Assembly (NCBI GenBank): GCA_963849365.1
Contig: CAWKHA010000004.1
Coordinates: 1,570,051-1,634,050, forward strand
Source: an uncultured Actinomycetota bacterium
Lineage (GTDB): Bacteria; Actinomycetota; Actinomycetes; Prado026
Length of the DNA stretch: 64,000 bases
Direction of reading: 5' to 3'
The notes beneath the pieces were generated by a model. The model saw only the letters and a program-made list of their open reading frames with translations. It ran no database searches and was not told where the DNA came from. Position 1 is the first letter of the stretch. Every line of letters starts with the position of its first letter. This document shows positions 1,046-51,414 of the stretch, piece after piece. Both the position numbers and the translations under genes were made by a program.

Positions 1046-1795
1046 ATGGCGAAGCTCACTGGAGGCCGCACCCTTTACGGTCATGCGCTTGGTGTGATCA
1101 TGCTTGACACCGTGTTTCCGCGAGTGCCCGGCGACGTCGGCAACGCCCTCACCTGGCCGTTTCCGGTGCGATACCGGATCGTGCCCGGCGCGCGCGTTGC
1201 CCAGGTCATCGGGCCGGAGCCGGATTTCTCGCTGCTCGAACCACTGCTGGATGCTGCGCGTGAGCTCGAGGCCGACGGCGTGCGAGCGATCACGACCAGT
1301 TGCGGGCTGCTGGCGATGTTCCAGCGCGAAATGGCCGCTGCGGTTTCGGTTCCGGTCCTCACGTCGGCGCTCTTGCAGATGCCCCTGGTGGCGCAGCTGA
1401 TCCGGCCCGACCAGGCGATCGGCGTCCTTACTGCCCGCGTAAGTGAACTCACCGCACGGCATTTTGCCTATGCCGGGTGGTCGGTTGACCAAGTGCCGGT
1501 GCGGGTGGGCGAGGTCGCGCCGGATGCGCTGCTCCACACCGTATACACCGACGACGCCGCCGTGGCCGACATTGAGGCGCTCGAAGCCGAACTGGTCGAC
1601 GCCGCGAGGCACCTTGTGCACGAGCACCCCGACGTCGGAGTGCTCCTGCTGGAGTGCACCAATTTCGTTCCGTTCAGCCAGGCGATTCGCGCCGCCACGG
1701 GCCGTCCCGTGTTCGACCTCTTCACGCTGGTCATGCAGATCTACAACGCGACCGCCGGTCACGATTTCACCCGCCGCGGACCCGCCGATCTTTGA
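1046..1795 (+). CDS. Asp/Glu/hydantoin racemase superfamily protein (paralog 1 of 3)
   Basis: ATG 1046 follows GGAGAGGA (1032-1039). MAKLTGGRTLYGHALGVIMLDTVFPRVPGDVGNALTWPFPV... aligns end to end with the products of 17089-17862(-) and 36383-37168(-). The ORF-track start at 650 is rejected because that N-terminus looks non-coding. Confidence 0.8.
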   Translation: MAKLTGGRTLYGHALGVIMLDTVFPRVPGDVGNALTWPFPVRYRIVPGARVAQVIGPEPDFSLLEPLLDAARELEADGVRAITTSCGLLAMFQREMAAAVSVPVLTSALLQMPLVAQLIRPDQAIGVLTARVSELTARHFAYAGWSVDQVPVRVGEVAPDALLHTVYTDDAAVADIEALEAELVDAARHLVHEHPDVGVLLLECTNFVPFSQAIRAATGRPVFDLFTLVMQIYNATAGHDFTRRGPADL

Positions 1796-1824
1796 TACCG
1801 AACGGCGATACCGTGTTACGATAT
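1795..1824. promoter_or_regulatory. two overlapping RTATCG-N5-CGATAY boxes plus -10 element of the aminotransferase gene
   Basis: ATACCG aacgg CGATAC (1795-1811) and ATACCG tgtta CGATAT (1808-1824). TACGAT at 1817-1822 is followed 6 nt later by ATG 1829, a leaderless layout. Confidence 0.6.
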
Positions 1825-1828
1825 TGTG

Positions 1829-2779
1829 ATGGGCTCCACGTTCAGCTGGATGGACGGACGGCTCGTACCGGAGGCAGACGCTGCGCTCCCGGTCACGAGC
1901 GAGGCGGTATTGCGTGGGGCGACCGTCTTCGAGGGCGTCCGCGCATATCAAGGTGACGACGGTGAGCTGCTCCTCTTCCGGCTCGGTGATCACCTCGACC
2001 GGTTGTTCGAGACATCGATGAAGTTCCTGCGGATGCGCCTCGCGTACGGGCGGGACGAACTCACCGAGGCCATCTTCACGCTGCTCGAGGCGAACGCAAT
2101 CGCGGCCGACGCGTACATCCGTGTCAACATCTACCTGGGCGAGCCGCTGGCGTATGGCGACGCGGACACACCCACCGGCGCATTCATCCTCGCCGAAGAA
2201 GGCTTCAAGCCGGCGCCGTCGTCGATGCGAGTCACGCTCAGTCCGTGGCGGCGCATGAGCGATCTGATGCTGCCGCCGCGCGTGAAGTCGAGCGCCAACT
2301 ACCTGAACAGCCGGATCGCGATGCTAGACGCGCGGCGCAAGGGCTTCGACACTGCGGTGCTGCTCAACGAGCGTGGCAAGGTGTCCGAGGGCCCGGCCAT
2401 GAATGTGTTCATGGTCCGGTCCGGCCGGCTGATCACGCCGCGTGCTACGGACGGCATTCTCGAAGGCATCACCCGTGCGACCGTCATCGAGATCGCAGCG
2501 CGAGAGTTAGGCATTCCGGTCGACGAGCGGGAGATCGACCCGACCGAGCTGTACCTCGCGAACGAGATGTTCCTGTGCGGCACAGCGTTCGAGATCGCCC
2601 CGGTCAGCGAGGTTGACGGCTACGACATCGGCAACGGCCAGGCCGGACCGATCACCGCCAGCCTCCAGGAGTGCTACGCCGAGTACGTTCGCGGTCGACG
2701 CGTTGCCCCCGACGGGTGGGTCACCCCAGTCGTCCGTGGCCGGCGGATCTTCCCGGCGCACCCGGCTAAGAACTCCTGA
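1829..2779 (+). CDS. fold-type IV PLP aminotransferase (branched-chain / D-amino-acid aminotransferase family)
   Basis: VFEGVRAY, KSSANYLNSRIAMLDARRKGFDTAVLLNERGKVSEGPAMNVFMV and GILEGITR blocks are typical of class IV aminotransferases. GTG 1826 is an alternative start. Confidence 0.85.
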   Translation: MGSTFSWMDGRLVPEADAALPVTSEAVLRGATVFEGVRAYQGDDGELLLFRLGDHLDRLFETSMKFLRMRLAYGRDELTEAIFTLLEANAIAADAYIRVNIYLGEPLAYGDADTPTGAFILAEEGFKPAPSSMRVTLSPWRRMSDLMLPPRVKSSANYLNSRIAMLDARRKGFDTAVLLNERGKVSEGPAMNVFMVRSGRLITPRATDGILEGITRATVIEIAARELGIPVDEREIDPTELYLANEMFLCGTAFEIAPVSEVDGYDIGNGQAGPITASLQECYAEYVRGRRVAPDGWVTPVVRGRRIFPAHPAKNS

Positions 2780-2782: not shown

Positions 2783-3772
2783 TCAACCGCTCGCCACCCT
2801 GTCGTACGCCTCGAGCGCGGTGCGCAGAACGCGCGTCCAGTACGCCCTCTCCGAGCCGGCTGCAAGGTGTGGCGTGATGATCACGTTGTCACCGGCGAGG
2901 GCAAGCAGAGGGTGCTCCTTCGGCAGCGGCTCATAGTGGAAGACGTCCAACGCAGCGCCGGCGATCTGGCCCTCGCGCAGCGCCGCGACGAGCGCGTCCT
3001 CGTCGAGGATCCGACCGCGCGAGGTGTTTATCAGGAACGCTGAGTTCTTCACCATCGCAAATTCCCGGGCGCCGAACTGGCCTTCGTTGCCGCCGGGCCC
3101 TTCCTGCAGGCGATGGTGCAGCGTGATGAAATCGCATTCCCGAATGAGGTCGTCGAACTCGCGCCACTCGAGATGCAGTCGCTCTTCATCGGCTTCCGGC
3201 AGTCGGTGGCGCTGCGTGTACCGCAGCCGCGCACCGAACGGCGCCAGCATCTGGGCCACCGATGAGCCGATCGCACCGACGCCAATGATGCCGACGACCT
3301 TCTCGAACAGGAACCCGGAACTCTGCAGCTGCGTCCAGTTGTAGACGTACCGCGCCTGGGTGGTCAGCGCCGGTTCGTCGCGGCCCGGTGCCCAAGGGTG
3401 CTCGGTTGCCGTCCGTGCGAGGGCGAGCAGGTTCCGCGCCAGCGCGAGGATCATCGTGACGGCGTATTCCGCGACAACATGGTGTCCCTGCTGCCTCTCT
3501 GTGGACAACCGGACAATCTGGACGTCGTCGAGGCCGCTCGGGATGTCATCGGTGTTCGTGGTGGCGATCAGCCGAAGGCTCGGGCGGGCCCGCCTGACCA
3601 CGCCGGCCTCGAGCGGTCTGTCGACCGCGAGGATCACCGCTGCGTCATCCGGCTCGTCGGCGAGCACCCACCCCTCGGGCAGCGCGGCCTGCAAGGCGGC
3701 AACCGCCTCCGTTGCGAACGTACTTTCCGCGAGCAGCGGATGGAGCCGGTGAGCTGCGTCCGAGTCCTGCAC
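2783..3772 (-). CDS. D-isomer-specific 2-hydroxyacid dehydrogenase family (paralog 1)
   Basis: VGIIGVGAIGSSVA Rossmann motif, FLINTSRGRILDEDALVAALREGQIAGAALDVFHYEPLP and ITPHLAAGS. GTG 3772 follows AGGTGG and gives 329 aa, matching paralog 11711-12697. The ORF-track start at 3820 overlaps an operator box. Confidence 0.85.
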   Translation of the reverse strand: MQDSDAAHRLHPLLAESTFATEAVAALQAALPEGWVLADEPDDAAVILAVDRPLEAGVVRRARPSLRLIATTNTDDIPSGLDDVQIVRLSTERQQGHHVVAEYAVTMILALARNLLALARTATEHPWAPGRDEPALTTQARYVYNWTQLQSSGFLFEKVVGIIGVGAIGSSVAQMLAPFGARLRYTQRHRLPEADEERLHLEWREFDDLIRECDFITLHHRLQEGPGGNEGQFGAREFAMVKNSAFLINTSRGRILDEDALVAALREGQIAGAALDVFHYEPLPKEHPLLALAGDNVIITPHLAAGSERAYWTRVLRTALEAYDRVASG

Positions 3773-3811: not shown

Positions 3812-3858
3812 ATGTCGCAAACCGATATTGCCTGAATGCTAGTATCGGAATACGATAC
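3812..3858. promoter_or_regulatory. two RTATCG-N5-CGATAY boxes (one perfect) upstream of 2-hydroxyacid dehydrogenase 1
   Basis: ATGTCG caaac CGATAT (3812-3828) and perfect palindrome GTATCG gaata CGATAC (3842-3858). Confidence 0.65.
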
Positions 3859-4266: not shown

Positions 4267-4361
4267 CTTCCATCCAGAGGTCCAACAACGTCCGCAAGTC
4301 GGCGCGGTTACTCCGTCATGGATGCTGATGACGACTACGCCGGGTTCACTGAGAGGTCTCC

Positions 4362-5249
4362 ATGACAGAGCTGCACGGGGTCCTGACCGCACTCGCCACG
4401 CCGTTCGGGCCGGACGGGGCCATCGACACCACGCTGCTGGGCAGGCTGGTCGACCGCAGCATCGACGGCGGGGTGCACGGCGTGGTCGCGTGCGGGTCGA
4501 CGGGTGAGTTCGCGGCGATGACGAGCGCGGAGCGCCGCCTGGTGGTCGAGACGGTGGTCGACCACGTGGGTGGTCGCGTACCCGTCGTGGCGCAGACCGG
4601 CGCGACGAGCACCGCGGAGGCCATCGAGCTGTCGCGGCATGCGCAGGGCGCCGGGGCCTCGGTCGTCATGGTGGTCGCGCCGTACTACGAGCCGCTCACC
4701 CTGGACGAGACGCTCGACTACCTGCGTGCCGTCGCCGACGCAGTCCAGATCCCGGTCATGCTCTACAACCTGCCCTCGGCGACCGGCGTCAACCTCGCGC
4801 CGGATACTGTCGGGCAGCTCGCGCGCGAGGTCGAGAACATCCGGTACATCAAGGACACCAGCGCCGACATGGCCCAGGCGGGCCGGCTCATCCACACGTA
4901 CGGGGACCTGGTCGGCACCTTCGTCGGCTGGGACAGCCTGCTCCTCGCCGCGCTCACCGAGGGCGCCGCCGGGGTGATGGCCGGCACCGCCAACGTGATG
5001 CCCGCCGAGCTGGTGTCGATCCACGACGCACTCGCTGCCGGGGACCTCGACCGGGCGCAGTCGGAGTGGGCGACGATCTACTCGCTGATGGACGCGATCG
5101 TTTCCGCGCCATTCATCCCGGCCGTCAAGGCCGCCCTGAACGCGCTCGGGTTCCCCGCCGGCAGCCCCCGGCCGCCGTTGCACGATCTCGACGGGGCCGC
5201 CGCGGCCCGGATCGGCTCACTCGCGGCCGCCCTGCTCCAGCCTGTCTGA
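4362..5249 (+). CDS. DapA/DHDPS-N-acetylneuraminate lyase family class I aldolase/lyase
   Basis: GVLTALATPF, GVVACGSTGEFAAMTSAER, MLYNLPSATG and IRYIKDTS blocks. RBS GAGAGG lies before the ATG. No operator box upstream. Confidence 0.85.
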   Translation: MTELHGVLTALATPFGPDGAIDTTLLGRLVDRSIDGGVHGVVACGSTGEFAAMTSAERRLVVETVVDHVGGRVPVVAQTGATSTAEAIELSRHAQGAGASVVMVVAPYYEPLTLDETLDYLRAVADAVQIPVMLYNLPSATGVNLAPDTVGQLAREVENIRYIKDTSADMAQAGRLIHTYGDLVGTFVGWDSLLLAALTEGAAGVMAGTANVMPAELVSIHDALAAGDLDRAQSEWATIYSLMDAIVSAPFIPAVKAALNALGFPAGSPRPPLHDLDGAAAARIGSLAAALLQPV

Positions 5250-5312
5250 TCCCGCGCAGCAACCGCATCAGCCTCCACCGAACCGGTGGCGCTGGCGAGA
5301 GGAGCCGGAGAA

Positions 5313-6493
5313 TTGGAGACCTGGATTCTTGCCGGTCAGTCCGGCATGGAAGGTCGGGGGTTGCTCCACGACCCGCGGGCGCTACTGGAGCCGGTCGACG
5401 GGGTCCGTGCGCTGAACAGCGCCGGCGAGTGGGAGGTCGCAGCCGACCCCCTGTACCGTATGTGGGAGAGTCTCACTCCCATTCATCGCGTCCTGTCGCG
5501 GCGAAGCTCGAACGAAATGAACCGCACTTGCAGCATCTCACCGATGCTGAGCTGGCCCGCCGCGATCGACTTCACGGCAAGGCCGGCGCGGGACTCAGCG
5601 TCGCATTTGGACAAGCGCTCGCCCAGGCCAAGGGCACGCAGATCGGGCTCATTCCGGCTGCCCACGGGGGCACTTCGCTGGAAGAGTGGCGCGTAGGGCC
5701 GGTGCCCGACGGCGGACAAACCTTGTTCGGGAGTCTGTGGGAGCGAGTCTTGCGGGCTCGCGCGACCGCCCCGGCGAAGCTCGCTGGAATTCTCTGGTAC
5801 CAGGGCGAGAGCGATGGCACCCTGGAGGACTCCGCGTCCTATGCGCAGCAGTTCGACACCTGGGTGAACGACGTCCGGGAGCTGCTCGAAGAGACCCGGC
5901 TTCCGGTGTACATCGTTCAACTCAGCCGAATGGTCGCCACGGAGCTCGGCCCTGGCGTCCCACCCGAAGGCTGGGTTCCGGCCGGCTGGGACGTCGTCCG
6001 GGAGGCGCAGCGCACCGCACCGGATCGATTGGCTGACGTCGGGGTGGTTTCTGCCATCGACCTGGGCCTCGTCGACGATTGCCACGTCGACAGCGCAGGA
6101 TTGGTTCGGCTCGGACGTCGGCTGGCTCGCCTCGCCCTAAGCGACGGGCGAGCGCCTCGCGTCGTACGAGTGGAGCGCGGACCCGATGCCGGCAACGGTC
6201 TGCACCAGGTCCGTGTCGTCTGCGATGAGGTCGACGGTGGTTGGCGACCGGCTAGCCATATCACCGGATTCGAAATCCGTGACGCCTCGAATGAGCGGCA
6301 TCGAGAGGTTGACGTCGTCGACGCCCATCCCGATTGGGATGACCCGCGGAACATCAATATCGTTCTCAACAGCGAAGGTGACTTCGATCCACAGATGAGA
6401 GTTGGCTACGGTCTGGGCTTCAACCCTCCCTGTACGGCTGTCGACGCTGCGGATATGGCGATGCCTGCTTTTGCCCCGCAGGCGGTCGCCTGA
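5313..6493 (+). pseudogene. SGNH/DUF303 sialate-O-acetylesterase-like hydrolase, frameshifted
   Basis: The N-terminal ETWILAGQSGMEGRG (GQSNM-type catalytic Ser motif) is in the frame of ORF 5286-5696. The downstream IGLIPAAHGGTSLEEW and ILWYQGESD blocks are in the frame of ORF 5066-6493. The frames must switch between about 5490 and 5575. Confidence 0.6.
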
Positions 6494-6542: not shown

Positions 6543-7976
6543 CTATGAGCGAGCTTCATCTGTGGCAGGGCGCAACATGGCACGGCCGGAGCGGCCGACT
6601 GTCGACGGCACGTGTGCGGCGACTGCGTCAACTCCGAGGCGCCCTGTGAAGACCATCCCGATGGTGAGCACCACCGTCATCGTCAGATTCATGATCAGGA
6701 AGGTCGTGTCAAAGCTGAGCGCTCCACGTGCAGCCGTGGCCACGAGCACGCCACCCAACCCGGTCAGCACAGCTGTCCCTGCCGCTCCCGCCAACTGAGT
6801 TGCGGCGGAATTGAAGCCGCGCTCTTCCTCAGTGGTCCGCCTCTGCACCAGCACGTTGACGGTCGTCATGGTGAGCCCGGCTCCAACACTTGCCAGACAC
6901 GAGGCAGCCAGCGCCCACCAGCCGGAAACCGTCGGAAAGGCGACGGCCGCGGCTACGAGAGTCGCGAGCGCGGTAAGGCCGAAGCCGAGCCTGACGAGCC
7001 GAATCCGGTAGACCTCATCGTCGCCCCGGGTCGGTCGGCTCTGCAGCCAGGATCCGACGGACCAGGCCGTCCCACCTACGGCAAGTGGCAGCCCGGCAAG
7101 CATTGGGCTGTACCCGTGCTGGACGGTCAGCATCAGCGGAATAACGGACTCGAGCCCCATCACGACGCCGGCGAGGATACCGCGAAGACCGATCGGCGCG
7201 GCTACGCCTCGGCGCAGCTGGAACGTCCCGCTGGGCAGCACGCCGCGCAGCCCCCAGGCGAGCAGCAGTCCAGAGCAGGTGGCGACGCCGACGAGGACCG
7301 GCCACGCCGGCGGGTGCTGGCCTACGTGCTCCAGAACCGCAATGGCAGCCGCGACGCCGAGCGCGAACGCCAGGTTCTTGCGACGCATGGCCGGCGCCGC
7401 GGGCCGGTGCAGCGCGCGCAGCACTGGGACCATCAGCAGCATAGCCACGACGGCGAGCGGAATGAGTCCGAAGAACGTCCATCGCCAGCTCGTGTACTGG
7501 GCGATGACCCCGGCGACCAACGGCCCCATCAGGGAGGGGACGACGAAGGTATATCCGATGACCGACTGGACCCTGGGCGCCTTCGCGGCCGAGAACATTC
7601 TGCCGATCACGACGTACACCGAGGTGAGCAGCATCCCGGTGCCGCAACCTTGGAGCAAGCGACCCACGATCACCCAGCTCATCGTCGGCGCCGCACCAAT
7701 CGCTAGCGAGCTCAATGGGAAGAGCAACATGCCTGCTATCAGCGGCGATCGAGGCCCGCGGGTGTCGCTGTACTGCGCCGCCAGAACAAGTCCGACGATC
7801 TTCGCCGTGACGAACCCGGTATAGACCCAGCCAAACGACCCGATACCGCCAAGGTCCTTAGCCGCCGTCGGCAGCACTGCGCCGGCCGACGTCTCCTGAA
7901 AGGCCATCAGCGTGAAGAGAACGAACACCCCGACCAACGTCGCCCGTTCACGCGCGTCAAACGAGGTAGATGGCAT
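6543..7976 (-). CDS. MFS transporter (paralog of 38597-39991)
   Basis: Many hydrophobic spans. MPSTSFDARERATLVGVFVLFTLMAFQETSAGAVLPTAAKDLG... aligns with the MFS at 38597-39991. ATG 7976 follows AGGAAG. Confidence 0.85.
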   Translation of the reverse strand: MPSTSFDARERATLVGVFVLFTLMAFQETSAGAVLPTAAKDLGGIGSFGWVYTGFVTAKIVGLVLAAQYSDTRGPRSPLIAGMLLFPLSSLAIGAAPTMSWVIVGRLLQGCGTGMLLTSVYVVIGRMFSAAKAPRVQSVIGYTFVVPSLMGPLVAGVIAQYTSWRWTFFGLIPLAVVAMLLMVPVLRALHRPAAPAMRRKNLAFALGVAAAIAVLEHVGQHPPAWPVLVGVATCSGLLLAWGLRGVLPSGTFQLRRGVAAPIGLRGILAGVVMGLESVIPLMLTVQHGYSPMLAGLPLAVGGTAWSVGSWLQSRPTRGDDEVYRIRLVRLGFGLTALATLVAAAVAFPTVSGWWALAASCLASVGAGLTMTTVNVLVQRRTTEEERGFNSAATQLAGAAGTAVLTGLGGVLVATAARGALSFDTTFLIMNLTMTVVLTIGMVFTGRLGVDAVAAHVPSTVGRSGRAMLRPATDEARS

Positions 7977-8001: not shown

Positions 8002-8031
8002 GTATCAGATACCGATATCAGCAAAGAATAC
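8002..8031. promoter_or_regulatory. two overlapping RTATCG-N5-CGATAY boxes in the MFS / cupin divergent region
   Basis: GTATCA gatac CGATAT (8002-8018) and ATATCA gcaaa GAATAC (8015-8031). Confidence 0.65.
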
Positions 8032-8160
8032 GAGTGCACGAGGGTTATCTCCACCGTGGACCACATCGTGGAAGCACGACGACCATGTGACCGTGCTGCA
8101 GCGTCTGTGCCGAACGCGGTCGTCCACCGGCTGCCATGCGGAGGGTGCTGTCGGGTAGCG

Positions 8161-8177
8161 ATATCGTGCTAGGATAC
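8161..8177. promoter_or_regulatory. RTATCG-N5-CGATAY box overlapping the extended -10 of the cupin gene
   Basis: ATATCG tgcta GGATAC. TGcTAGGAT extended -10 (8167-8175), with ATG 8182 seven nt after the -10, a leaderless layout. Confidence 0.65.
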
Positions 8178-9669: not shown

Positions 9670-9699
9670 ATAACGCTAGCAGATATCGGATGCCGACCT
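9670..9699. promoter_or_regulatory. RTATCG-N5-CGATAY boxes upstream of CCG gene 1
   Basis: ATAACG ctagc AGATAT (9670-9686) and ATATCG gatgc CGACCT (9683-9699, weak right half). Confidence 0.5.
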
Positions 9700-10234: not shown

Positions 10235-10266
10235 GATCCGTACTCCGTTCGGTCGCGATGTGATGG

Positions 10267-10368
10267 CTACTCGGCGGCGTCCAGGACGGCGCGGGGGATC
10301 AGTCCCCAGTACTCCCGCTCGTCTGCCGCGGCGATGTGTGGCGTGATGAGCGGTGCAAGGTCACACAT
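10267..10368 (-). pseudogene. 3'-terminal stump of a third D-2-hydroxyacid dehydrogenase paralog
   Basis: APLITPHIAAADEREYWGLIPRAVLDAAE-stop aligns with the C-termini VIITPHLAAGSERAYWTRVLRTALEAY and VILTPHIAAGTEVEYWRYTLRTVLEAY of the two intact paralogs. Nothing homologous lies upstream. Confidence 0.5.
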
Positions 10369-10405
10369 GACCGCCGGGCGCCGCGGATATCGACAGCCCC
10401 GGGGA

Positions 10406-42616: not shown

Positions 42617-42636
42617 GACGAGTCGCTCATGACGAG
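42610..42636. repeat. tandem 13/14-bp microduplication at the junction of the two acyl-CoA dehydrogenase genes
   Basis: CGCTCATGACGAG at 42610-22 and again at 42624-36. One copy carries the ATG of the downstream gene and the other the TGA of the upstream gene (minus strand). Confidence 0.7.
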
Positions 42637-43781: not shown

Positions 43782-43807
43782 GGGTGCCTGGTGGGTGAGT
43801 CGACGGC

Positions 43808-44629
43808 TCAGGCGAAGCCGAAGTCGCGGAGGTCGTCGTTCATCTGCACCTTCCGGTCGGTGGACTCGCCACGCTTTCCCACGATGAGCGCACAGGCGAC
43901 CTGGTAGTCACCGCTAGGGAAGGTGCGCGCACGCGTGCCCGGCACCACGATGGAACCCGCCGGGACGCGCCCCTTGTAGGTCACCGGCTCCGGACCGGTC
44001 ACGTCGATGATGTGGCTGGACCCCGTCAGGCATGTCTGAGCGGCGATCACGGCGCCTTCCTCGACGATGACGCCCTCCACGATGATGGAACGCGAGCCGA
44101 TGAACGCGCCGTCCTCGATGATCACGGGGCGTGCGCCGGGCGGCTCGAGAACCCCGCCGATCCCGACGCCACCGGACAGGTGCACGTTCTTGCCGATCTG
44201 AGCGCAGCTGCCAACCGTCGCCCATGCGTCCACCAGGGTGCCGCGGTCGACGTAGGCGCCGATGTTGACGAAGCCGAGGGCGATGATGACCTCGGGCGCC
44301 ACGTACGACCCGTAGCGAACCACGGAGCCGGCGGTGATCCGGTTGCCACGAGCGAGGATGTCGCGCTTGATCGGGATCCGGTCGTGGTACTCCATCGGCC
44401 CCGCGCGCTCGACAATCATCGGCGCCACGTGGAAGTACTGCAGGATCGCCTGCTGCACCCACGTGTTGACCTGCCACTCGCCGTCGATCTTCTCAGCGAT
44501 GCGCAGCATGCCGCGGTCGAGGCAGTCGATGGTCTCCTCGATGGCCGCGCGGTGGCCAGGCGATTCACGAGCGGTGGGATCGTCCACCACCTCGTTGACC
44601 AACTTCTCCAGCTCAGCGACTTCGGACAC
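43808..44629 (-). CDS. dapD: tetrahydrodipicolinate N-succinyltransferase-type hexapeptide acyltransferase (proteobacterial short form)
   Basis: NIGAYVDRGTLVDAWATVGSCAQIGKNVHLSGGVGIGGVLEPPGARPVIIEDGAFIGSRSIIVEGVIVEEG is close to identical in pattern to E. coli DapD as I recall it. GTG 44629 follows GAAGGAG. Confidence 0.85.
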   Translation of the reverse strand: MSEVAELEKLVNEVVDDPTARESPGHRAAIEETIDCLDRGMLRIAEKIDGEWQVNTWVQQAILQYFHVAPMIVERAGPMEYHDRIPIKRDILARGNRITAGSVVRYGSYVAPEVIIALGFVNIGAYVDRGTLVDAWATVGSCAQIGKNVHLSGGVGIGGVLEPPGARPVIIEDGAFIGSRSIIVEGVIVEEGAVIAAQTCLTGSSHIIDVTGPEPVTYKGRVPAGSIVVPGTRARTFPSGDYQVACALIVGKRGESTDRKVQMNDDLRDFGFA

Positions 44630-44692
44630 GCATGAACTCCTTCGAAGTCGATCGGCCGGTCGGGCGGCGGGGCCTACAACTGACGGCATACG

Positions 44693-44709
44693 ATATCGCA
44701 TGCCGATTC
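44693..44709. promoter_or_regulatory. RTATCG-N5-CGATAY box upstream of the dapD-like gene
   Basis: ATATCG catgc CGATTC. The 16-mer GATATCGCATGCCGAT is repeated exactly at 46358. Confidence 0.6.
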
Positions 44710-44742
44710 TGATGTCGAGTCTGTCGTGCAGCCAGCCCCATG

Positions 44743-46218
44743 TCAGTAGGACAGGTACACCGTCTTGGACTCGGTGAAGAACTGGCGGGCGGCCTTGCCC
44801 AGCTCCCGGCCGCCGGACCCGCTGTCCTTCATGCCGCCGAAAGGGACCTGGAGCTCGATGCCCGACGTCCCCTGATTAATGCGGACGATGCCCGCTCGAA
44901 CCTCGGACGTGAACTGCATGGCCCGGTGCAGATCGCGGGTGAACAGGCTCGCGCTCAGCCCGTACGGAGTGTCGTTGGCCAGATGCAGGGCCTCGTCGAA
45001 GGTGTCGACCGGCAGCACCGCCACCACCGGGCCAAAGACCTCGTCCTGGGCGATGGGGTCGTTCGGCTGGACGTCGACGAACACGGTGGGCGGGACGAAG
45101 TAGCCCTCGGCCAGATCGCCGTCGGCCCGCGAACCGCCGGCAATGGCACGAGCGCCCGCCTGATGCGCGGCGGCCAGGTGCCCGAGCACGTCCTGCAGGT
45201 GTTGGGCCGAGGCCAGCGGGCCGAGGGTGGTGCGCGGATCGAGCGGGTCGCCCAGACGCCAGTCCTGCGCACGCTCACACAGGCGCTGGAGCAAGGGCTC
45301 GACCACTGACTTCTCGACGATGACCCGGCTGGTCGCGGTGCACTTCTGGCCGGATCCGCCGAACGCGGCCACGGAGATCTGCTCGGCGGCCAGGTCCAGG
45401 TCGGCATCAGCGAGCACCACGGCCGGGTTCTTACCGCCCAACTCCAGCTGCACCTTCTTGCCGCGGGTCGCGGCCTTGGCCTGCAGTGCACGGCCGACCT
45501 GCGTCGAGCCGGTGAAGGTCACGGCGTCGATGCCGGGGTTCTGCACGAGCTCGTCCCCGACCACCGAGCCCTTGCCCAGGACGAGATTCAGGACGCCGTT
45601 GGGGATGCCAGCGTCGACGAGAGCCTGGGAGAGGTGGACCGAGCTCAGCGGAACGACCTCCGCGGACTTCCAGACCACCGTGTTGCCGAACGCGAGGGCA
45701 GGCGCGAGCTTCCAGCTGGGCAGCGAGATCGGGAAGTTCCACGGTGTGATGACACTGACCACGCCCACCGGCTCGCTGCGCCGGAGCAGCAGCGTGTCGC
45801 TGTTGTGAGACGGGAAGGTCTCGCCGTCGGGGTCCAGCGTCTGCGCTGCGTAGTAGCGGAAGATCCGCGCGCCAAGGGCGACCTCGCGAAGGCTCTCGGC
45901 CTTGGTCTTGCCTTCTTCCCGGGACAGGTCGCGGGCGATGAGGTCCGCACGGGCATCCAGGATGTTGGCGGTCCGCTCGAGCAGCTCGCCGCGCGCCGGT
46001 GCCGCGGTCCGCCGCCAGCGTGTGGAAGCCTCGCCGGCGGCGTCGACAGCGGCACGGGCCAGATCGACATCCGCGAGATGCGTCAGGGCCACATGCTCCG
46101 AGGGGTCCGCCGGGTTCACGTCGGGCGATGTGGCCGGTCCGGAGTGCCAGCTTCCAGCGACGAACGAGCTCAACTCGGGAATCAGCGTCGACGACGCCGG
46201 TGTGGCCGCATCCAGCAT
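44743..46218 (-). CDS. NAD(P)-dependent aldehyde dehydrogenase
   Basis: ITPWNFPISLPSWKLAPALAFGNTVVWK, ELGGKNPAVV, and FGGSGQKCTATSR with the catalytic Cys. Confidence 0.85.
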   Translation of the reverse strand: MLDAATPASSTLIPELSSFVAGSWHSGPATSPDVNPADPSEHVALTHLADVDLARAAVDAAGEASTRWRRTAAPARGELLERTANILDARADLIARDLSREEGKTKAESLREVALGARIFRYYAAQTLDPDGETFPSHNSDTLLLRRSEPVGVVSVITPWNFPISLPSWKLAPALAFGNTVVWKSAEVVPLSSVHLSQALVDAGIPNGVLNLVLGKGSVVGDELVQNPGIDAVTFTGSTQVGRALQAKAATRGKKVQLELGGKNPAVVLADADLDLAAEQISVAAFGGSGQKCTATSRVIVEKSVVEPLLQRLCERAQDWRLGDPLDPRTTLGPLASAQHLQDVLGHLAAAHQAGARAIAGGSRADGDLAEGYFVPPTVFVDVQPNDPIAQDEVFGPVVAVLPVDTFDEALHLANDTPYGLSASLFTRDLHRAMQFTSEVRAGIVRINQGTSGIELQVPFGGMKDSGSGGRELGKAARQFFTESKTVYLSY

Positions 46219-46345
46219 GGCTAGGCACTTCCGATCTCGTAGGACTCGCCAACGCAGTCCGAAGGCGGCACGGAGCAGCCGGGAACTCGCCTCAGTTCCG
46301 TGCGAGACGGCGACCGCCTACCCATCCTCAGGACATGCGGCTATG

Positions 46346-46375
46346 GTATCAGGCCGTGATATCGCATGCCGATGG
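46346..46375. promoter_or_regulatory. two overlapping RTATCG-N5-CGATAY boxes in the aldehyde dehydrogenase / M20 peptidase divergent region
   Basis: GTATCA ggccg TGATAT (46346-62) and ATATCG catgc CGATGG (46359-75). TATGGT -10 at 46342-47. Confidence 0.65.
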
Positions 46376-47555
46376 TTGGGACGGGCCGGCAGGTGGCCTC
46401 GGCGGCCCCGCGGCCAAGGCGGTCCGGACCAGTCTGGAACGCCGGGTCGTCGAGATGACGGCGGTGCTCGGTGAGCTCGTCACCGCGGAGTCGTCGACCG
46501 ACGACCCGCAGGGACTGGCGAGGGTCGCGGAGCTGCTCGAGTCGATGCTGGCGCCCTACGGGACGATCGAGCGACGCCCGTCGGCAACCCATGGAGTGGA
46601 CCACCTTCTCCTCAACGTGCCCGGCGAGCATGCGCAGCTCCCACCCGCGGTGGTGCTGGGTCACTTCGACACCGTGTGGGCCCGCGGGACGATCGAGCAC
46701 ATTCCGTTCCGGGTCAGTGACGTCGGCGTGGTGACCGGACCGGGCTGCTTCGACATGAAGGGCGGTCTGGTCCTTCTGCTGTTCGCCCTGCGAGAGCTGG
46801 CTGCGCTCGGGGTCCGGCCGCGCCGCCCGGTGCGGATCGTGCTCAATGCCGACGAGGAGGTCGGCAGTCCCAGCTCCCGAGGACTCATTGCCGAGGCCGC
46901 GGACGGGGCCGCCGTCGCGCTCGTGCTCGAGGGCCCGCTCCCGGGCGGGACCTTGAAGACAGCGCGCAAGGGGAGCGCCAGCTACACCGTCACGATCACC
47001 GGCCGGGCCGCCCACTCCGGCATCGAGCCAGACAAGGGTGTCAGCGCTGTCCTCGAGCTGGCCCATCAGGTGCTGGCGATGGATGCGCTGAACCACCCCG
47101 ACCGCGGCACGACCGTGAACGTCGGGGTGGTCAGCGGTGGGTCCAGGGTGAACGTCGTTCCGGGGAACGCGGAGGCCAGGATCCACGTACGCAGCGTGAG
47201 CGCCGGCGAAGCCGATCGAGTCCGGGCCGCCCTGCAGGACCTGCAGCCACACCTGCCCGGCGCCAAGATCGACGTGCTCGCCGGGCTGGCGCGCGAGCCG
47301 ATGGAGCGGACGCCGCAGATCGGACAGCTGTTCGCCACGGCAGCGGCCATCGCCGCCGAGATGGGCGTCTGCGACCTGCGGGAGGGATCGACCGGCGGCG
47401 CGAGCGACGGCAATCTCGTCGCGGCGCTCGGCATCCCGACGTTGGACGGCCTCGGCCCAGAAGGGGGTGGCGCTCATGCCGATCACGAGCATGTCGTCGC
47501 CGCCAGCCTGCCACGACGGGCCGCGCTGCTCGCCGGACTGCTCTGCGAGGTCTGA
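46356..47555 (+). CDS. M20-family metallopeptidase (carboxypeptidase G2 / DapE-ArgE deacylase-like)
   Basis: GHFDTVW, DMKGG, NADEEVGS and GGAHADHEHV blocks. GTG 46356 is 8 nt after TATGGT, a leaderless candidate. ATG 46455 is an alternative start. Confidence 0.8.
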   Translation: MISHADGWDGPAGGLGGPAAKAVRTSLERRVVEMTAVLGELVTAESSTDDPQGLARVAELLESMLAPYGTIERRPSATHGVDHLLLNVPGEHAQLPPAVVLGHFDTVWARGTIEHIPFRVSDVGVVTGPGCFDMKGGLVLLLFALRELAALGVRPRRPVRIVLNADEEVGSPSSRGLIAEAADGAAVALVLEGPLPGGTLKTARKGSASYTVTITGRAAHSGIEPDKGVSAVLELAHQVLAMDALNHPDRGTTVNVGVVSGGSRVNVVPGNAEARIHVRSVSAGEADRVRAALQDLQPHLPGAKIDVLAGLAREPMERTPQIGQLFATAAAIAAEMGVCDLREGSTGGASDGNLVAALGIPTLDGLGPEGGGAHADHEHVVAASLPRRAALLAGLLCEV

Positions 47556-47563
47556 CGGCTATG

Positions 47564-47580
47564 ATGTCGGATGGCGATAT
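47564..47580. promoter_or_regulatory. RTATCG-N5-CGATAY box upstream of the 2-oxoacid dehydrogenase operon
   Basis: ATGTCG gatgg CGATAT. TATAGT -10 at 47584-89, with GTG 47598 eight nt later. Confidence 0.65.
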
Positions 47581-47597
47581 CGCTATAGTGACCCCGT

Positions 47598-48668
47598 GTG
47601 GGTGACCGACCGGAGTCCGCGAGGCGACAGATGCCAGAGCAGCTGCAGCAGATACTGACTCCCGAGGGGGTCCTGGTCGCCGAGGCGCCGGTGGACCTCG
47701 ATGGCGCGGTGCAGCTGTACCGATGGATGGTGGAAGCGCGCGTCTACGACAAGAAGGGCGTCGCGCTGCAGAAGCAGGGCAGGCTCGCGACCTACGCGCC
47801 GTTCGAGGGCCAGGAGGCCGCTCAGGTCGGCAGTGCCGCCGTTCTCCGCCCGGACGACTGGGTCGTTCCGTCGTATCGCGATCCGATCCCGATGTGGATG
47901 CAGGGCTATCCGATGGACCTGCTCTTCGCGGCGCGGCGCGGCACAGAGCTGGGAAACTCTCCGCCACCGGGGGTGAACGTCCTGCCGCCGTCGATCACCG
48001 TCGGTGGACACATGGTCCATGCCGTGGGACTCGCGTGGGCGGAGCAGCTGCGTGGCACCGGTCGAGTGGCCATGACGTACTTCGGTGACGGCGCGACCTC
48101 CGAGGGTGACTTCCACGAGGCGATGAACTTCGCCGGCGTCATGAAGGCCGGCTGTGTGTTCCTGTGCCAGAACAACGGGTGGGCGATCTCCCTGCCGTTC
48201 GAGGAGCAGAGCGGGTCTGCGACTGTCGCGGCGAAGGGGGCCGCCTACGGCATGCCCGGTGTGCGTGTGGACGGCAACGACGTCTTCGCGGTGTATCAGG
48301 CGTCCCGGCAGGCGGTCGACCTGGCTCGCGAGGGCGGCGGTCCGACCCTGATCGAGGCGGTGACCTACCGGATGGGACCGCACAGCACCGCGGACGACCC
48401 CAGCCGTTACCGCGACTCGGAGATGCTGACCGGCTGGCGCGAGCGTGATCCGCTGGAGCGCCTGCGTCGGTACCTGGCAGCGGCGGATCGATGGACGCCT
48501 CAGTGGCAGGCCGAGCTCGAGGAGCAGGGGTCGCAACGCGTCCTGGACGCGGTGTCGGCCGCCGAGCTGCTCGACCCGTTCACGCCTGGCGAGCTGTTCG
48601 ACGCGATGTTCGCCGTGCTGCCGCCGGCGCTCGCCAAGCAGCGCGCCCAGGCCGTGGAGGAGGCCTGA
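47598..48668 (+). CDS. 2-oxoacid dehydrogenase E1 component, alpha subunit (TPP-binding)
   Basis: YFGDGATSEGDFHEAMNFAGV...FLCQNNGWAIS TPP motif and YRMGPHSTADDPSRYR. Confidence 0.85.
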   Translation: MGDRPESARRQMPEQLQQILTPEGVLVAEAPVDLDGAVQLYRWMVEARVYDKKGVALQKQGRLATYAPFEGQEAAQVGSAAVLRPDDWVVPSYRDPIPMWMQGYPMDLLFAARRGTELGNSPPPGVNVLPPSITVGGHMVHAVGLAWAEQLRGTGRVAMTYFGDGATSEGDFHEAMNFAGVMKAGCVFLCQNNGWAISLPFEEQSGSATVAAKGAAYGMPGVRVDGNDVFAVYQASRQAVDLAREGGGPTLIEAVTYRMGPHSTADDPSRYRDSEMLTGWRERDPLERLRRYLAAADRWTPQWQAELEEQGSQRVLDAVSAAELLDPFTPGELFDAMFAVLPPALAKQRAQAVEEA

Positions 48669-49645
48669 TGGCCAGCCGTACCTTTGCCCAGGCTCTCAAC
48701 CTCGCGCTCGACACGGCGCTGACCCAGTACGACGACGTCGTCGTCCTGGGGGAGGACGTTGGCCGCACCGGCGGCGTCTTCCGCATCACTGACGGCCTGC
48801 GCGACCGGCACGGCCCCAACCGCGTGATCGACTCCCCGCTGGCGGAGTCGGGCATCGTGGGGGTCGGCCTGGGAATGGCGATCGCCGGCCTGCGTCCGGT
48901 GCTCGAGCTTCAGTTCATGGGGTTCTCCTATCCCGCCTTCGACCAGATCATCAGCCACGTGTCGAGAGTCCGTAACCGAAGCCGGCACCGATTCACCGCG
49001 CCGCTGGTGATCCGGATCCCCTTCGGCGGCGGCATCGGCGCGGCCGAGCACCACTCGGAGTCGGCCGAGGCGATCTATGCGCACACCCCGGGCCTGAAGG
49101 TCGTGGTGGCCTCCCGGCCGAGCGACGCGGCCAGCATGCTGCTGGCCGCGATCGAGGATCCCGACCCCGTCATCTTCCTCGAGCCCATCCGGCTGTACCG
49201 GGCGGTCAAAGAGGAGATGTCGGACACGGTCACCGCAGGTGGGCTCGGGACCGCAGCGCTGGACCGTGCCGGTGACGACATCACGCTGGTCTCCTGGGGG
49301 GCGATGATGACGGAGACGCGAAAGGCCGCCGACGCCCTCGCGGACGCCGGGATCTCGGCGGAGGTCGTCGACATGCGGAGCCTCGCCCCGATCGACATCG
49401 GCCCGCTCGCGGAATCCGTGCGCAAGACCGGTCGAGGAGTGGTCATCCACGAAGCGCCGCGCAGCGCTGGCCTCGGCGCCGAGATCATCGCTCAGCTGCA
49501 GGAGCACTGCGCTTACGACCTCGAGGCGCCGGTCGCCCGGGTGACCGGCTGGGACACGGTCTTCCCGTTGAAGATGGCCGAGCACCACTACCTGCCCAGC
49601 GTGCAACGGATCGTCGCGGCGGCCAAGGGGGTGCTCGACGCATGA
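48668..49645 (+). CDS. 2-oxoacid dehydrogenase E1 component, beta subunit
   Basis: VVVLGEDVGRTGGVFRIT, VIDSPLAESGIVG and HSESAEAIYAHTPGLKVV. ATG overlaps the alpha-subunit stop (TGATG). Confidence 0.85.
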   Translation: MASRTFAQALNLALDTALTQYDDVVVLGEDVGRTGGVFRITDGLRDRHGPNRVIDSPLAESGIVGVGLGMAIAGLRPVLELQFMGFSYPAFDQIISHVSRVRNRSRHRFTAPLVIRIPFGGGIGAAEHHSESAEAIYAHTPGLKVVVASRPSDAASMLLAAIEDPDPVIFLEPIRLYRAVKEEMSDTVTAGGLGTAALDRAGDDITLVSWGAMMTETRKAADALADAGISAEVVDMRSLAPIDIGPLAESVRKTGRGVVIHEAPRSAGLGAEIIAQLQEHCAYDLEAPVARVTGWDTVFPLKMAEHHYLPSVQRIVAAAKGVLDA

Positions 49646-50886
49646 CAGCTCGGGAGTTCCTGCTGCCGGACATCGGCGAGGGCCTGGTCGAGGCGGAGAT
49701 CGTGCACTGGCTGGTCCCGGTCGGCGGCGAGGTGAAGGTCGACGAGTCGCTGGTCGAGGTCGAGACAGCCAAAGCCGTCACCGAGATCCCGAGCCCGTTC
49801 GCGGGCACGGTGATCTACCACGGCGCGGCGGAGGGCGAGATGCTCGAGGTCGGGCGCACGCTAGTGGTCATCGGCGACCCGGCTGAGGTGTGGCCCGTTG
49901 CCACCGACGGTCGACCCACCAGCAGCGCGGACGCCCGTCCCATCGTCGGAAGCCTGGTTGAGGATCCGGTGGATCTGACGCCCGCGCCCGCGGCTGCCGG
50001 GGGGCTGGCCACGCGGTCAGCCGCCATGCCACTGGTGCGCCGGCTGGCCAAGGATCTCGGTGTGGACCTGGGCGGCATCACCGGCACCGGGCGGGACGGC
50101 CGCATCACTCGTGGCGATGTCGAGGCGGCCGCGGCCCGGACGCGGTCGGGTCAGGCGACCACTTCGCCGCAGGGGCGGCACGAGCCGCCGGCCTCGCGCG
50201 ACGGTGACGACCGACAGCCGCTGGGTCGGCTGCGGTCCAGGATCGCGGCGAACGTGAGCCGCTCCTGGGCGGAGATCCCCCAGGTGACGGCCTTCGACGA
50301 GGTCGACGCGACGCGGCTGTTGGCGGCACGGTCGGTGCTGCAGAAGCGCCTGGGCGTTCCGATGCCCATCGACGCGCTGGTCGTGGCCTCCCTGATCTCG
50401 GCACTTCGTGAGGTGCCGGTCCTGAACGCCGCCCTGGACGGTGATGAGATCGTCTACCACTCCCAGCATGACATCGGCGTTGCCGTGGACACCCCGGATG
50501 GTGTCGTAGTCGCGGTGATCGCGGACGCCGGCAACATGGGCGTGACTCAGCTGGCAGCTGAGGTGACCAGACTCAGCGAGAGCGCCAGAAGCCAGTCGCT
50601 GCGCCCGCGCGAGCTCACGGGTCAGAGCTTCACGCTGTCCAACATCGGCGCCGCGAACGGTGGCTGGGGCACACCGCTGGTGCCGTACGGCACGGTCGCG
50701 ATCCTGTCGATCGGCCGGGCGAAGGACCGCCCCATCGCTCGGGACGGTCAGCTGGCCGTTGCCCCAGTGATGCCGTTGTCGCTGTCGTTCGATCACCGTG
50801 TCGCCGACGGGGCGTCGGGTCGGCGATTCCTGACGGTCCTGATCGAGAACCTCAGCGAGCCGGCCCTGCTCCTCGCCAACGGTTGA
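49642..50886 (+). CDS. dihydrolipoamide acyltransferase E2 component
   Basis: Lipoyl domain LVEVETAKAVTEIPSPFAG, peripheral-subunit-binding segment, and catalytic DHRVADG. ATGA overlap with E1 beta. Confidence 0.85.
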   Translation: MTAREFLLPDIGEGLVEAEIVHWLVPVGGEVKVDESLVEVETAKAVTEIPSPFAGTVIYHGAAEGEMLEVGRTLVVIGDPAEVWPVATDGRPTSSADARPIVGSLVEDPVDLTPAPAAAGGLATRSAAMPLVRRLAKDLGVDLGGITGTGRDGRITRGDVEAAAARTRSGQATTSPQGRHEPPASRDGDDRQPLGRLRSRIAANVSRSWAEIPQVTAFDEVDATRLLAARSVLQKRLGVPMPIDALVVASLISALREVPVLNAALDGDEIVYHSQHDIGVAVDTPDGVVVAVIADAGNMGVTQLAAEVTRLSESARSQSLRPRELTGQSFTLSNIGAANGGWGTPLVPYGTVAILSIGRAKDRPIARDGQLAVAPVMPLSLSFDHRVADGASGRRFLTVLIENLSEPALLLANG

Positions 50887-50892
50887 TGCCCG

Positions 50893-51414
50893 CTAGGGCA
50901 CGAACGGCGTGCAGGCCGCCGCCACGTCGATGCAGACGGCGCGGGCCCGGATCTTCCACTGGTCACCGCGCTTGACCAGGTTGTCGCAGATCAGACCGGC
51001 GACGGTTCGGGACACTGAGCTGCTGTTGTCGAGCACTCCGTAGTGGTAGACGCACGTCCAGGCCTCGGTGAGATCGTCGGACAACCGCACGACCAGGTTG
51101 CCGAACCGGTGATGCTGATGCGGGAGGTCGCGATGCATCGCCTCGTAGTTGGCCCGGATCGCGTCGGCGCCGGACGCTTGACCGCGACTGTTGGTGAGGG
51201 CGGCGTCAGGCGTGAAGAAGGCCATGAGGCCGTCGATGTCGCCGGAGTCCCAGGTGTAGGCGTAGCGGGCCACCAGGTCGTGCAGGGCCAGCTCCTCGCT
51301 GAGGTACTGCAGACTCGGACGGCCTGGTCGAGGGCGCCGCAGCTGGGCGCGTGCCCACTCCCAGGCGGTCGAGGCGCCGACGTCCGGCGCGAACGCGCTC
51401 GTCAGGGCCGACAT
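50893..51414 (-). CDS. SnoaL-like / NTF2-fold protein (paralog 3 of 3)
   Basis: YAYTWDSGDIDGLMAFFTPDAALTNSRG...HHRFGNLVV...AWTCVYHY...GDQWKIRARAV. TAGTAT -10 (51428-23, minus strand) lies 8 nt before ATG 51414. ATG 51432 is an alternative start. Confidence 0.7.
   Translation of the reverse strand: MSALTSAFAPDVGASTAWEWARAQLRRPRPGRPSLQYLSEELALHDLVARYAYTWDSGDIDGLMAFFTPDAALTNSRGQASGADAIRANYEAMHRDLPHQHHRFGNLVVRLSDDLTEAWTCVYHYGVLDNSSSVSRTVAGLICDNLVKRGDQWKIRARAVCIDVAAACTPFVP

Follow-up and report, generated by a model that had tools for sequence, protein, structure and literature searches.

The 64-kb window analysed here (64,000 nucleotides of contig CAWKHA010000004.1 from an uncultured member of the Actinomycetota) carries about 55 genes, nearly all of them for enzymes and transporters of small-molecule catabolism, and only one gene for a transcription factor, a protein of the PadR family (56291-56710(-)). 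Several protein families recur along it, among them racemase-like proteins of the PRK07475 family, iron-sulfur proteins of the CCG type, 2-hydroxyacid dehydrogenases, MFS transporters and SnoaL-like proteins. We consider it probable that we are dealing not with a recent island, but with part of a large, old and rearranging catabolic regulon, in which ancient paralogs stand under PadR and a shared operator. The whole window (at least positions 880-63270) would then lie inside the regulon, its genes would be arranged in some 26 short transcription units with the same palindrome in nearly every promoter spacer, and PadR would repress these units as well as its own gene. The PRK07475, CCG, 2-hydroxyacid dehydrogenase, MFS and SnoaL sets would stem from ancient duplications in the lineage of the regulon and, along with operator and PadR, would have spread through Actinomycetota and Chloroflexota by inheritance or transfer, while operator-bounded cassettes would have been reordered, gained and lost among relatives, with stumps and a fresh duplication/deletion scar left behind.

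The initial annotation had pointed to a promoter architecture shared by the genes for the MFS transporters M1 and M2. This motif is indeed found at both, without mismatch upstream of M1 (8002-8019(-)) and with one mismatch upstream of M2 (40001-40018(-), 9 nt from the GTG start), but it is not a peculiarity of MFS genes. When up to two mismatches are allowed, it has 18 matches in the window as compared with 0.43 expected, 17 of which reside in intergenic spacers beside gene starts; the eighteenth (575-592) is located inside an IS630 remnant and looks like noise. The top intergenic hexamer is ATATCG/CGATAT, which occurs 41 times in intergenic and four times in coding DNA, as compared with an average of 1.4 for hexamers that have the same A+T content. 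The underlying unit is a 17-mer dyad, ATATCG-N5-CGATAT, with the core CGATATCG, whose counts across loci are informative only for intergenic DNA or for the 17-mer. Two dyads frequently overlap by 4 bp, resulting in TCG-N5-CGATATCG-N5-CGA with a paired 13-bp architecture. At three mismatches or fewer, the dyad matches intergenic DNA 44 times versus about once in shuffled intergenic DNA. Given the dyad symmetry and the 5-bp spacer, an interpretation as a -10/-35 promoter pair was set aside. A literature search for the motif string returned primers and unrelated text only.

The motif is present in 26 of the 42 spacers that measure 25 bp or more (11 of 12 divergent, 13 of 22 tandem and one of seven convergent). 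The single convergent spacer with a site is a scar that contains a displaced promoter spacer, and the motif thus marks promoters. A representative full operator, TCG-N5-CGATATCG-N5-CGA, is situated in the divergent spacer between the genes for the 2-hydroxyacid dehydrogenase H2 and a Mo-oxidoreductase (12719-12748). Further sites are found at 879-908, 1795-1824, 3812-3858, 8148-8177, 9670-9699, 11639, 15355-15384, 16345-16374, 17882, 19341-19370, 25311-25329, 26574-26592, 31450, 32044, 37180-37209, 40211, 44680-44709, 46346-46375, 47564-47582, 51426-51455, 52272-52290, 55462, 56752, 56829-56860, 58669-58687 and 63243-63272. Either directly or via an operon leader, the motif precedes essentially every gene copy listed in the initial annotation, and the proposal that the copies are kept under the same operator thus stands for nearly all of them, if the operator-like motif is taken as such. 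The scan of the window revealed no motif in the DHDPS-SASA unit (4362-6493) and in its divergent spacer (4267-4361). These genes for a DHDPS-family protein and a SASA-family esterase-like protein form the only sizeable unit lacking it and possibly represent a separate embedded regulon.

Most likely, the motif is read by the PadR-family protein (PF03551, 62 bits), which is the best candidate for a repressor. Two of the sites listed above, 56752 and 56829-56860, lie in the upstream spacer of its own gene, and all PadR orthologs examined carry the motif in the same position. The relatives of the protein in the PDB are all PadR proteins, the closest being Rv3488 of Mycobacterium tuberculosis (5zhc, E 1.7e-25, residues 24-124). 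Both are short single-domain PadR proteins, but no genomic context in common was seen; a literature search for operator data on Rv3488 yielded nothing relevant. The distribution of motif and regulator was followed in two ways. With the patterns used, 274 confirmed PRK07475 stretches were detected in 185,579 species genomes, and the scan gave 80 loci. Among these racemase-anchored loci, motif densities of 0.24-0.48 per kb are reached only in Acidimicrobiia and Limnocylindria, and a PadR ortholog is encoded on the same contig in five of those Acidimicrobiia genomes and in locus L001. The remaining loci show about 0.07 motifs per kb or less, including L002 from Arthrobacter, which has a good ortholog of the racemase-like protein A1 and no PadR. 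As an independent test, we searched with PadR itself and then chose three contexts without reference to the racemase, from Kribbella shirazensis, from an Acidimicrobiales metagenome-assembled genome (MAG) and from a JGI metagenome contig. All three lie within the toolkit seen in the window (50-80% identity), which is made up of a benzoylformate-decarboxylase-like enzyme (T2), a DapD-like N-succinyltransferase, two acyl-CoA dehydrogenases (ACADs), a DapB-like protein, an M20-family protein, the E1alpha, E1beta and E2 subunits of a 2-oxoacid dehydrogenase, an aldehyde dehydrogenase (ALDH), ChrA, metallophosphoesterase, SnoaL, ferredoxin and ferredoxin reductase, the dehydrogenase MDR2, cupin, a PRK07475 protein, the Opp transporter and a 148-aa protein. 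In all three, the motif is present in promoter spacers, perfect 17-bp palindromes included. The metagenome contig L086 encodes, inside this toolkit, two PadR paralogs 9.5 kb apart (10001-10378 and 19895-20368), 71% and 75% identical to PadR from the window.

Instead of being a PadR operator, the motif might belong to promoters in general or be bound by a global regulator encoded elsewhere, and would then not be specific to these genes. It extends across the entire 64 kb with the Opp transporter included, loci L081, L082 and L009 carry it without PadR in the fetched range, and one site in L081 is located upstream of a tatA-like gene. On the other hand, the motif is palindromic with a phasing of 11-13 bp instead of being a -35/-10 pair, and it is missing in front of the genes for phosphoenolpyruvate carboxykinase and a response regulator in L082 just as in front of the DHDPS-SASA unit. 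Across phyla it is found only where toolkit and PadR occur and is absent from 60 or more other loci, while each of the three independently sampled PadR loci has it. This explanation appears unlikely to us. Still, several points weigh against the proposed regulon and the role we ascribe to its parts. PadR is the putative reader of the motif, proposed from co-occurrence and from its position as sole regulator in the window, and the three motif-bearing loci without PadR in the fetched range count here as well. For characterized PadR proteins the dyad is ATGT-N8-ACAT, from which ATATCG-N5-CGATAT differs in sequence; the geometry is similar (17-bp dyad). The motif spans the whole window and its limits lie beyond, such that a more global regulator may be at work. 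The trees mentioned below are neighbour-joining trees on BLOSUM distances without bootstrap support. Finally, the substrates are guesses, with most enzyme scores falling below the NCBIfam equivalog cut-offs, and the racemase or epimerase role of the PRK07475 proteins is putative, as the family has no assigned activity.

The designation of the region as an island found no support. The G+C content across the window is uniform at 64-72% without any step, and core blocks are syntenic with the chromosome of the cultured Kribbella shirazensis at 50-80% identity. Because of the high G+C content, raw lists of open reading frames (ORFs) were dominated by shadow ORFs; genes were called by third-position GC and annotated with Pfam and NCBIfam profiles. 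A search of the window with Rfam and ARAGORN revealed no real tRNA, and no integrase was found either; a tRNA-Gly(GCC) proposed by ARAGORN at 3375-3452(+) lies inside the coding sequence of the 2-hydroxyacid dehydrogenase H1, is blank in Rfam and was rejected as a probable false positive. No border is visible, because both ends of the window are still within the motif-bearing region, and borders would have to be sought outside. Horizontal acquisition as a genomic island could draw on the fragment of an IS630-type DDE_3 transposase at 439-738(-) (PF13358, 33 bits) and on the patchy occurrence of the toolkit across phyla, suggesting transfer at some time. Set against uniform G+C, conserved synteny and the lack of tRNA, integrase and boundary, we regard it as distinctly improbable. 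The IS630 fragment resides in an otherwise non-coding first kilobase and is the single trace of a mobile element within the window.

The racemase-like proteins, the 2-hydroxyacid dehydrogenases, the MFS transporters and the CCG proteins are specific paralogs with 27-60% amino acid identity, and the same is probably true for the SnoaL-like proteins; family counts cover the 64-kb window. In the initial annotation, racemase-like genes had been listed at 1046, 17089 and 36383, and these were confirmed as specific members of PRK07475. A1 (1046-1795(+)), A2 (17089-17862(-)) and A3 (36383-37102(-)) score 286, 264 and 248 bits with NF005679 (PRK07475), all above the cut-off of 231. The cut-off of 31 for PF01177 is exceeded by A1 (33.5 bits) and A2, with A3 just under it at 29.7. 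In an all-versus-all BLASTP comparison, A1 and A2 share 51% identical residues and A3 shares 36-39% with both. A database search returned at least 119 clusters of other organisms that are 57-84% identical to A1, versus 51% for A2. In a neighbour-joining tree of 89 homologs and A1-A3, the three proteins fall into three separate clades. A1 groups with sequences from Arthrobacter, Limnocylindria, Chloroflexota and Acidimicrobiia, A2 with a second set from Acidimicrobiia (orthologs at 60-67%), and A3 resides far outside in an outlying clade together with Desulfovibrionaceae sequences. The three genes are found in different company. A1 lies beside a branched-chain-type aminotransferase gene (starting at 1826) and H1. 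A2, with an operator at 17882-17898, adjoins the gene for a DAO-family flavoprotein of 433 aa (DAO433), opposite a unit for a pyridoxal phosphate-dependent dehydratase-like protein (PALP), RidA, an agmatinase-like protein and the thiamine diphosphate (TPP) enzyme T1. A3 overlaps the start of the gene for an MSOX-like N-methyl-amino-acid oxidase, with which it likely forms one operon, opposite a GbcA-like Rieske oxygenase and M2. An assignment of the 1826 gene as D-amino-acid aminotransferase was rejected, as the protein failed the D-aminotransferase models but passed those for branched-chain transaminases with 282 and 260 bits.

An AlphaFold model of A1 confidently predicts (pLDDT 89) the two-domain Rossmann-like fold of an Asp/Glu/hydantoin-racemase-type enzyme, and its best matches in Foldseek are hydantoin, glutamate and aspartate racemases and arylmalonate decarboxylase (TM 0.55-0.62). 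Across 40 sequences, cysteines C86 and C204 do not vary, each following a strand and opening a helix. A PDB sequence search with A1 found nothing. PRK07475 is the bacterial subfamily closest to the algal dimethylsulfoniopropionate (DMSP) lyase Alma1, and its bacterial members were reported to be without DMSP lyase activity (PMC10349084). A1-A3 belong to the same superfamily as Alma1 (PMC10349084) and likewise contain two cysteines in xCGx and ECx contexts. Alma1 is characterized by DCGF/NCGF and ECTE/ECTQ in addition to motifs specific to eukaryotes, whereas the proteins from the window carry SCGL/SCGF/ECGY and ECTN/ECAN/ECTG, and an identity as Alma1-type lyases was therefore dismissed.

The two D-2-hydroxyacid dehydrogenases noted earlier at 2783 and 11711, H1 (2783-3772(-)) and H2 (11711-12697(-), both PF02826), are confirmed as a pair with 60.5% amino acid and 71% nucleotide identity. 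H1 has an ortholog at 84% in L082. For H2 as query, fifteen foreign proteins with 62-66% identity rank above H1, and both reside in separate clades of the tree. No other protein of this subfamily from the 2.03-Mb source contig is among the 120 best matches of H2, which indicates that members of the subfamily are not dispersed over the contig. A stump reported in addition is real but weak, a C-terminal remnant at 10276-10368(-) of which 31 aa align in tblastn with residues 281-311 of H2 (52%, E 4e-4). M1 (6543-7976(-)) and M2 (38597-39991(-), both PF07690), equally verified as a pair, share 49.5% amino acid identity, with homologous N-termini. In a search of 1.84 billion representatives, M1 found one full-length relative at 55% identity (P0241, 50% identical to M2) and the next at 42%. 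The subfamily is therefore narrow, and the split between M1 and M2 predates that between M1 and P0241.

All three CCG proteins exist, though the copy at 33415 is not the full-length ORF as which it had been described. C1 (8532-9644(-)) and C2 (10406-11605(-)) match PF02754 with 35 and 22 bits (cut-off 20.6) and retain C-x31-CC-x~37-C-x2-C in their alignment, in agreement with the CCG pattern CX31-39CCX35-36CXXC. C3 (33415-34432(+)) is split into two ORFs (33415-33795 and 33734-34432) by a frameshift near 33717-33722; the ORFs match residues 14-107 and 118-361 of C1/C2 in different frames. The ortholog in L081, an ENA contig, is one intact ORF of 336 aa (11403-12413). Both C3 and this ortholog have no Pfam match and lack the last cysteine, and the membership of C3 in the CCG family is thus only partial. 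The frameshift is of single-base scale within 33710-33725 and could indicate a pseudogene or a sequencing error. Identities range from 27 to 35% among C1-C3, with 31% for C1 and C2. A PDB sequence search with C2 found nothing. The SnoaL-like proteins, again all three verified, are S1 (9734-10213(-)), S2 (31489-32073(+)) and S3 (50893-51414(-), 74 bits). All match PF13577 and are 27-34% identical to each other. S2 is encoded by the first gene of an S2-DAO-C3 unit and has an ortholog at 60% in L086.

Matters are different for the DAO, TPP and MDR proteins, which are present as claimed but are only superfamily mates and no paralog sets in a specific sense. Among the four DAO proteins, identities amount to 26-31% in alignments of partial length, and the subfamilies differ, with one protein DadA-like, one N-methyl-amino-acid-oxidase-like and two unassigned. 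DAO433 (17946-19247(-), PF01266 over the full length) has an ortholog at 68% in L082. The ORF of 733 aa originally given for it (17946-20147(-)) is a high-GC artefact, since the opposite strand encodes PALP and an operator lies between the two genes. PALP, a Thr/Ser-dehydratase-like protein (19393-20400(+); PF00291 224 bits; NF005292 342 bits, cut-off 371), is specified by the first gene of its unit, and its stop overlaps the start of the RidA gene (20397-20400). The second DAO protein (25418-26527(+), PF01266) is encoded divergently from an OCD-family reductase (24379-25221), which matches P2C/Pyr2C reductase models below their cut-offs. The remaining two are the DadA-like D-amino-acid dehydrogenase (32089-33396(+); NF001933 190 bits, cut-off 383) and the MSOX-like N-methyl-amino-acid oxidase (35185-36390(-); NF008425 285 bits, cut-off 257). 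T1 (21841-23367(+)) is near 5-guanidino-2-oxopentanoate decarboxylase (NF005712 448 bits, cut-off 500), and T2 (56871-58556(+)) resembles benzoylformate decarboxylase (NF005485 348 bits, cut-off 493). They are 27.6% identical, and the two MDR dehydrogenases 26.6%. An Xsc/taurine-related role of the TPP enzymes was discarded because of scores far under the cut-offs.

Such low identities and different NCBIfam subfamilies are what would be expected if members of large superfamilies had met by coincidence where catabolic genes are dense in a large genome of high G+C content. For the window as a whole, this explanation fares still worse than an island. PRK07475 is rare (274 stretches in 185,579 genomes), yet three copies are found here within 36 kb and several MAGs have two or three within 40 kb, the M1/M2 subfamily has almost no other relatives at 50% or above, and neither the shared operator nor the co-occurrence across phyla is explained by chance. 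The narrow subfamilies and the motif thus exceed chance, the big superfamilies not demonstrably so.

A trace of recent duplication does exist. The DAO stump noticed near 29865 turned out to be a strong case, as the DNA at 29861-29991 repeats the 3' end of the 35185 gene (35177-35308) with 93% nucleotide identity over 132 bp. It is followed by a stretch (29991-30030) that matches 37177-37216 with 90% over 40 bp and includes CGATATCG at 30005. The 170-bp scar (29861-30030) hence joins the MSOX 3' end to the A3/Rieske promoter spacer and, judged by these alignments, represents another copy of the MSOX-A3 operon that has lost 1.87 kb of its interior, the junction falling at the operator-bearing spacer. 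On the other strand, the 132-bp repeat encodes the C-terminal 19 residues of the MFS protein specified by 28684-29925 (35182-35238(+) versus 29869-29925, 100%). The presence of these residues at both loci points at reciprocal remnants of convergently arranged MFS and MSOX genes. DNA repeats of high identity (90-93%) occur only at the scar, whereas intact gene pairs are at most 71% identical or undetectable at the nucleotide level. Another stump, an 82-aa fragment 44% identical to C2, is found in L081 (9605-9850(+)) shortly before the H2 ortholog and hints at frequent deletions in the regulon.

Local, repeated and fairly recent duplication of a toolkit with the operator kept, as originally envisaged, is the least likely explanation of all and, as regards timing, largely refuted by these comparisons: the scar with its 90-93% identity is one real trace of it, H1 and H2 still share 71% of their nucleotides and no further H-subfamily protein of the source contig appears among the 120 best matches, but the intact copies are no recent local duplicates, being 27-60% identical, with closer orthologs of A1-A3, H1 and H2 elsewhere, A1, A2 and A3 as well as H1 and H2 in separate clades, M1 closer to P0241 than to M2, and the same multi-copy sets already present in clusters from Acidimicrobiia and Limnocylindria. 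That copies are closest to proteins from other taxa, which had been named as a sign of unrelated acquisitions, thus holds with respect to the timing of duplication; yet the copies travel together and are not unrelated acquisitions.

The old regulon favoured here is further illustrated by related clusters. In MAGs of Limnocylindria and of sponge-associated Acidimicrobiia, PRK07475 genes number two or three within about 40 kb and are accompanied by orthologs of C2 (53-55%, from Acidimicrobiia), the DadA-like dehydrogenase (46-49%, adjoining CCG genes), ChrA-like protein (51-54%), PadR (59-64%), T2 (56%), DapD-like protein (59-63%), Mo-oxidoreductase (60-61%), metallophosphoesterase (65%) and the Opp transporter. 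These clusters have paralog runs of their own, namely three Ldh_2 and three MmgE/PrpD genes and split chrA pairs; three MmgE/PrpD genes each are present in L010 and L006. The claim that a toolkit is shuffled under one operator is borne out in so far as the order of cassettes differs between genomes (L081, L082, Kribbella, L086), with the process operating over the long term. The same motif, PadR ortholog and toolkit are found in contigs from Kribbella shirazensis, Acidimicrobiia and Limnocylindria with different gene orders. In L082 from a close relative (A1 83%, H1 84%), the order is DAO-25418, DAO433 / A1, H1 / PALP, RidA, agmatinase-like with the motif in every spacer, as compared with A1-(aminotransferase)-H1 at 1-3.8 kb and A2-DAO433 / PALP-RidA-agmatinase-T1 at 17-23 kb in the window. 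Orthologs of T2 (50-65%) are encoded beside DapD-like genes in L084 from Kribbella, in L086 and in MAGs. The arrangement T2-DapD-ACAD-ACAD is contiguous in Kribbella and L086, and in the window T2 is situated 12 kb from DapD-ACAD-ACAD. Three clusters encode the large and small subunits of aconitase X (L006 4158-9884, L009 8296-11895 and L084 7489-9638) together with two or three tandem Ldh_2-family dehydrogenases beside PRK07475 genes; the window has neither. Aconitase X (AcnX) is the family of cis-3-hydroxy-L-proline dehydratase (PMC5144071).

As to function, gene content points to oxidative catabolism of amino-acid derivatives, presumably D/L, N-methylated, guanidino, cyclic imino and diamino compounds. 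The racemase-like enzymes would each supply substrate to a stereospecific enzyme of the alpha-amino centre, and because each copy adjoins a different one of these, parallel pathways for related substrates, as proposed in the initial annotation, are plausible. The CCG iron-sulfur proteins adjoin the DadA-like dehydrogenase. A shared trunk consisting of the DapD-like protein, TPP decarboxylase, ALDH, M20 protein, 2-oxoacid dehydrogenase, ACADs and ECH would channel the products into the metabolism of CoA esters. With low confidence, we put forward an undescribed route in which homologs of lysine-biosynthetic enzymes (DapD-like, DapE-like M20 and DapB-like) work catabolically together with PRK07475 epimerases under one PadR and about 26 promoters. 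In this tentative scheme, DAO-type dehydrogenases would make cyclic imino acids from D- or diamino acids (diaminopimelate, lysine and homologs), and ring-opening by succinylation would be followed by decarboxylation via the benzoylformate-decarboxylase-like TPP enzyme, oxidation by ALDH and desuccinylation. The products would enter a 2-oxoadipate-type dehydrogenase complex and the ACADs, and the Alma1-related PRK07475 epimerases would admit different stereoisomers or homologs. A literature search for a catabolic diaminopimelate route with a succinyltransferase returned nothing relevant.

Comparison with established systems reveals partial similarities. KstR and KstR2 from Mycobacterium and Rhodococcus are autoregulating TetR regulators encoded within a cholesterol-catabolic supercluster with a repeated palindromic operator. 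Dozens of catabolic genes, many paralogous families, one operator and an in-cluster regulator are features in common. By analogy, the window appears to follow KstR-like logic, with a regulator-operator pair that seems not to have been described before. Its regulator is PadR-like instead of TetR-like, motif and presumed substrates (amino-acid derivatives, not steroids) differ, and the regulon is conserved across MAGs from Actinomycetota and Chloroflexota. In Pseudomonas, arginine is degraded via 2-ketoarginine by DauA/DauB, AruI and GbuA. The region 17946-26527 is reminiscent of this route with DAO, OCD reductase, T1 and an agmatinase-family ureohydrolase; however, all scores stay under equivalog cut-offs except for agmatinase TIGR01230, and the window adds the PLP-dependent dehydratase, RidA and the racemase-like gene and differs in regulation. 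In Pseudomonas putida, D-lysine and pipecolate are catabolized by the Ama/DpkA route. Such clusters and the Lhp hydroxyproline cluster with its AcnX cis-3-hydroxy-L-proline dehydratase (PMC5144071) resemble the window with regard to DAO-type dehydrogenases/oxidases, pyrroline/piperideine-2-carboxylate reductases of the OCD or Ldh_2 type, DHDPS-family protein and ALDH, while AcnX is found only in the related MAGs. Unlike the hydroxyproline and D-lysine clusters, the window contains PRK07475 as epimerase candidate instead of a proline-racemase-like or PLP racemase, and adds the DapD-like/M20/TPP/2-oxoacid-dehydrogenase trunk, the CCG proteins and the PadR operator.

Some further features deserve mention. 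The conserved core block (41555-50886) comprises two ACADs, the DapD-like N-succinyltransferase, ALDH, M20 (DapE-like) and the E1alpha/E1beta/E2 2-oxoacid dehydrogenase, as assigned by Pfam and NCBIfam, and its orthologs from Kribbella shirazensis reach 54-80% identity. Just within the start of the E1beta gene lies an inverted repeat of 28 bp (48723-48750), which is near-perfect at 93%. A 30-bp stretch of the ferredoxin-reductase gene (54939-54968) matches the N-terminal region of DAO433 (19202-19231) with 93% nucleotide identity. The 148-aa protein encoded beside the PadR gene (55810-56256(+)) has no Pfam match; its orthologs in L084 from Kribbella shirazensis (1954-2394, 72%) and in L086 (19447-19866, 68%) both reside inside the toolkit.

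If the old-regulon reading is correct, it would provide a first functional context for PRK07475, together with a cultured organism, Kribbella shirazensis, as well as a candidate operator and a regulon of about 26 promoters for a PadR subfamily widespread in soil bacteria and sponge symbionts. The window would also be a worked example of how a supercluster evolves by reshuffling of operator-tagged cassettes and retention of old paralogs for related substrates, as opposed to recent duplication in place. Acidimicrobiia MAGs associated with sponges feature the toolkit prominently, and it may therefore bear on the use of host-derived nitrogen compounds by these symbionts.

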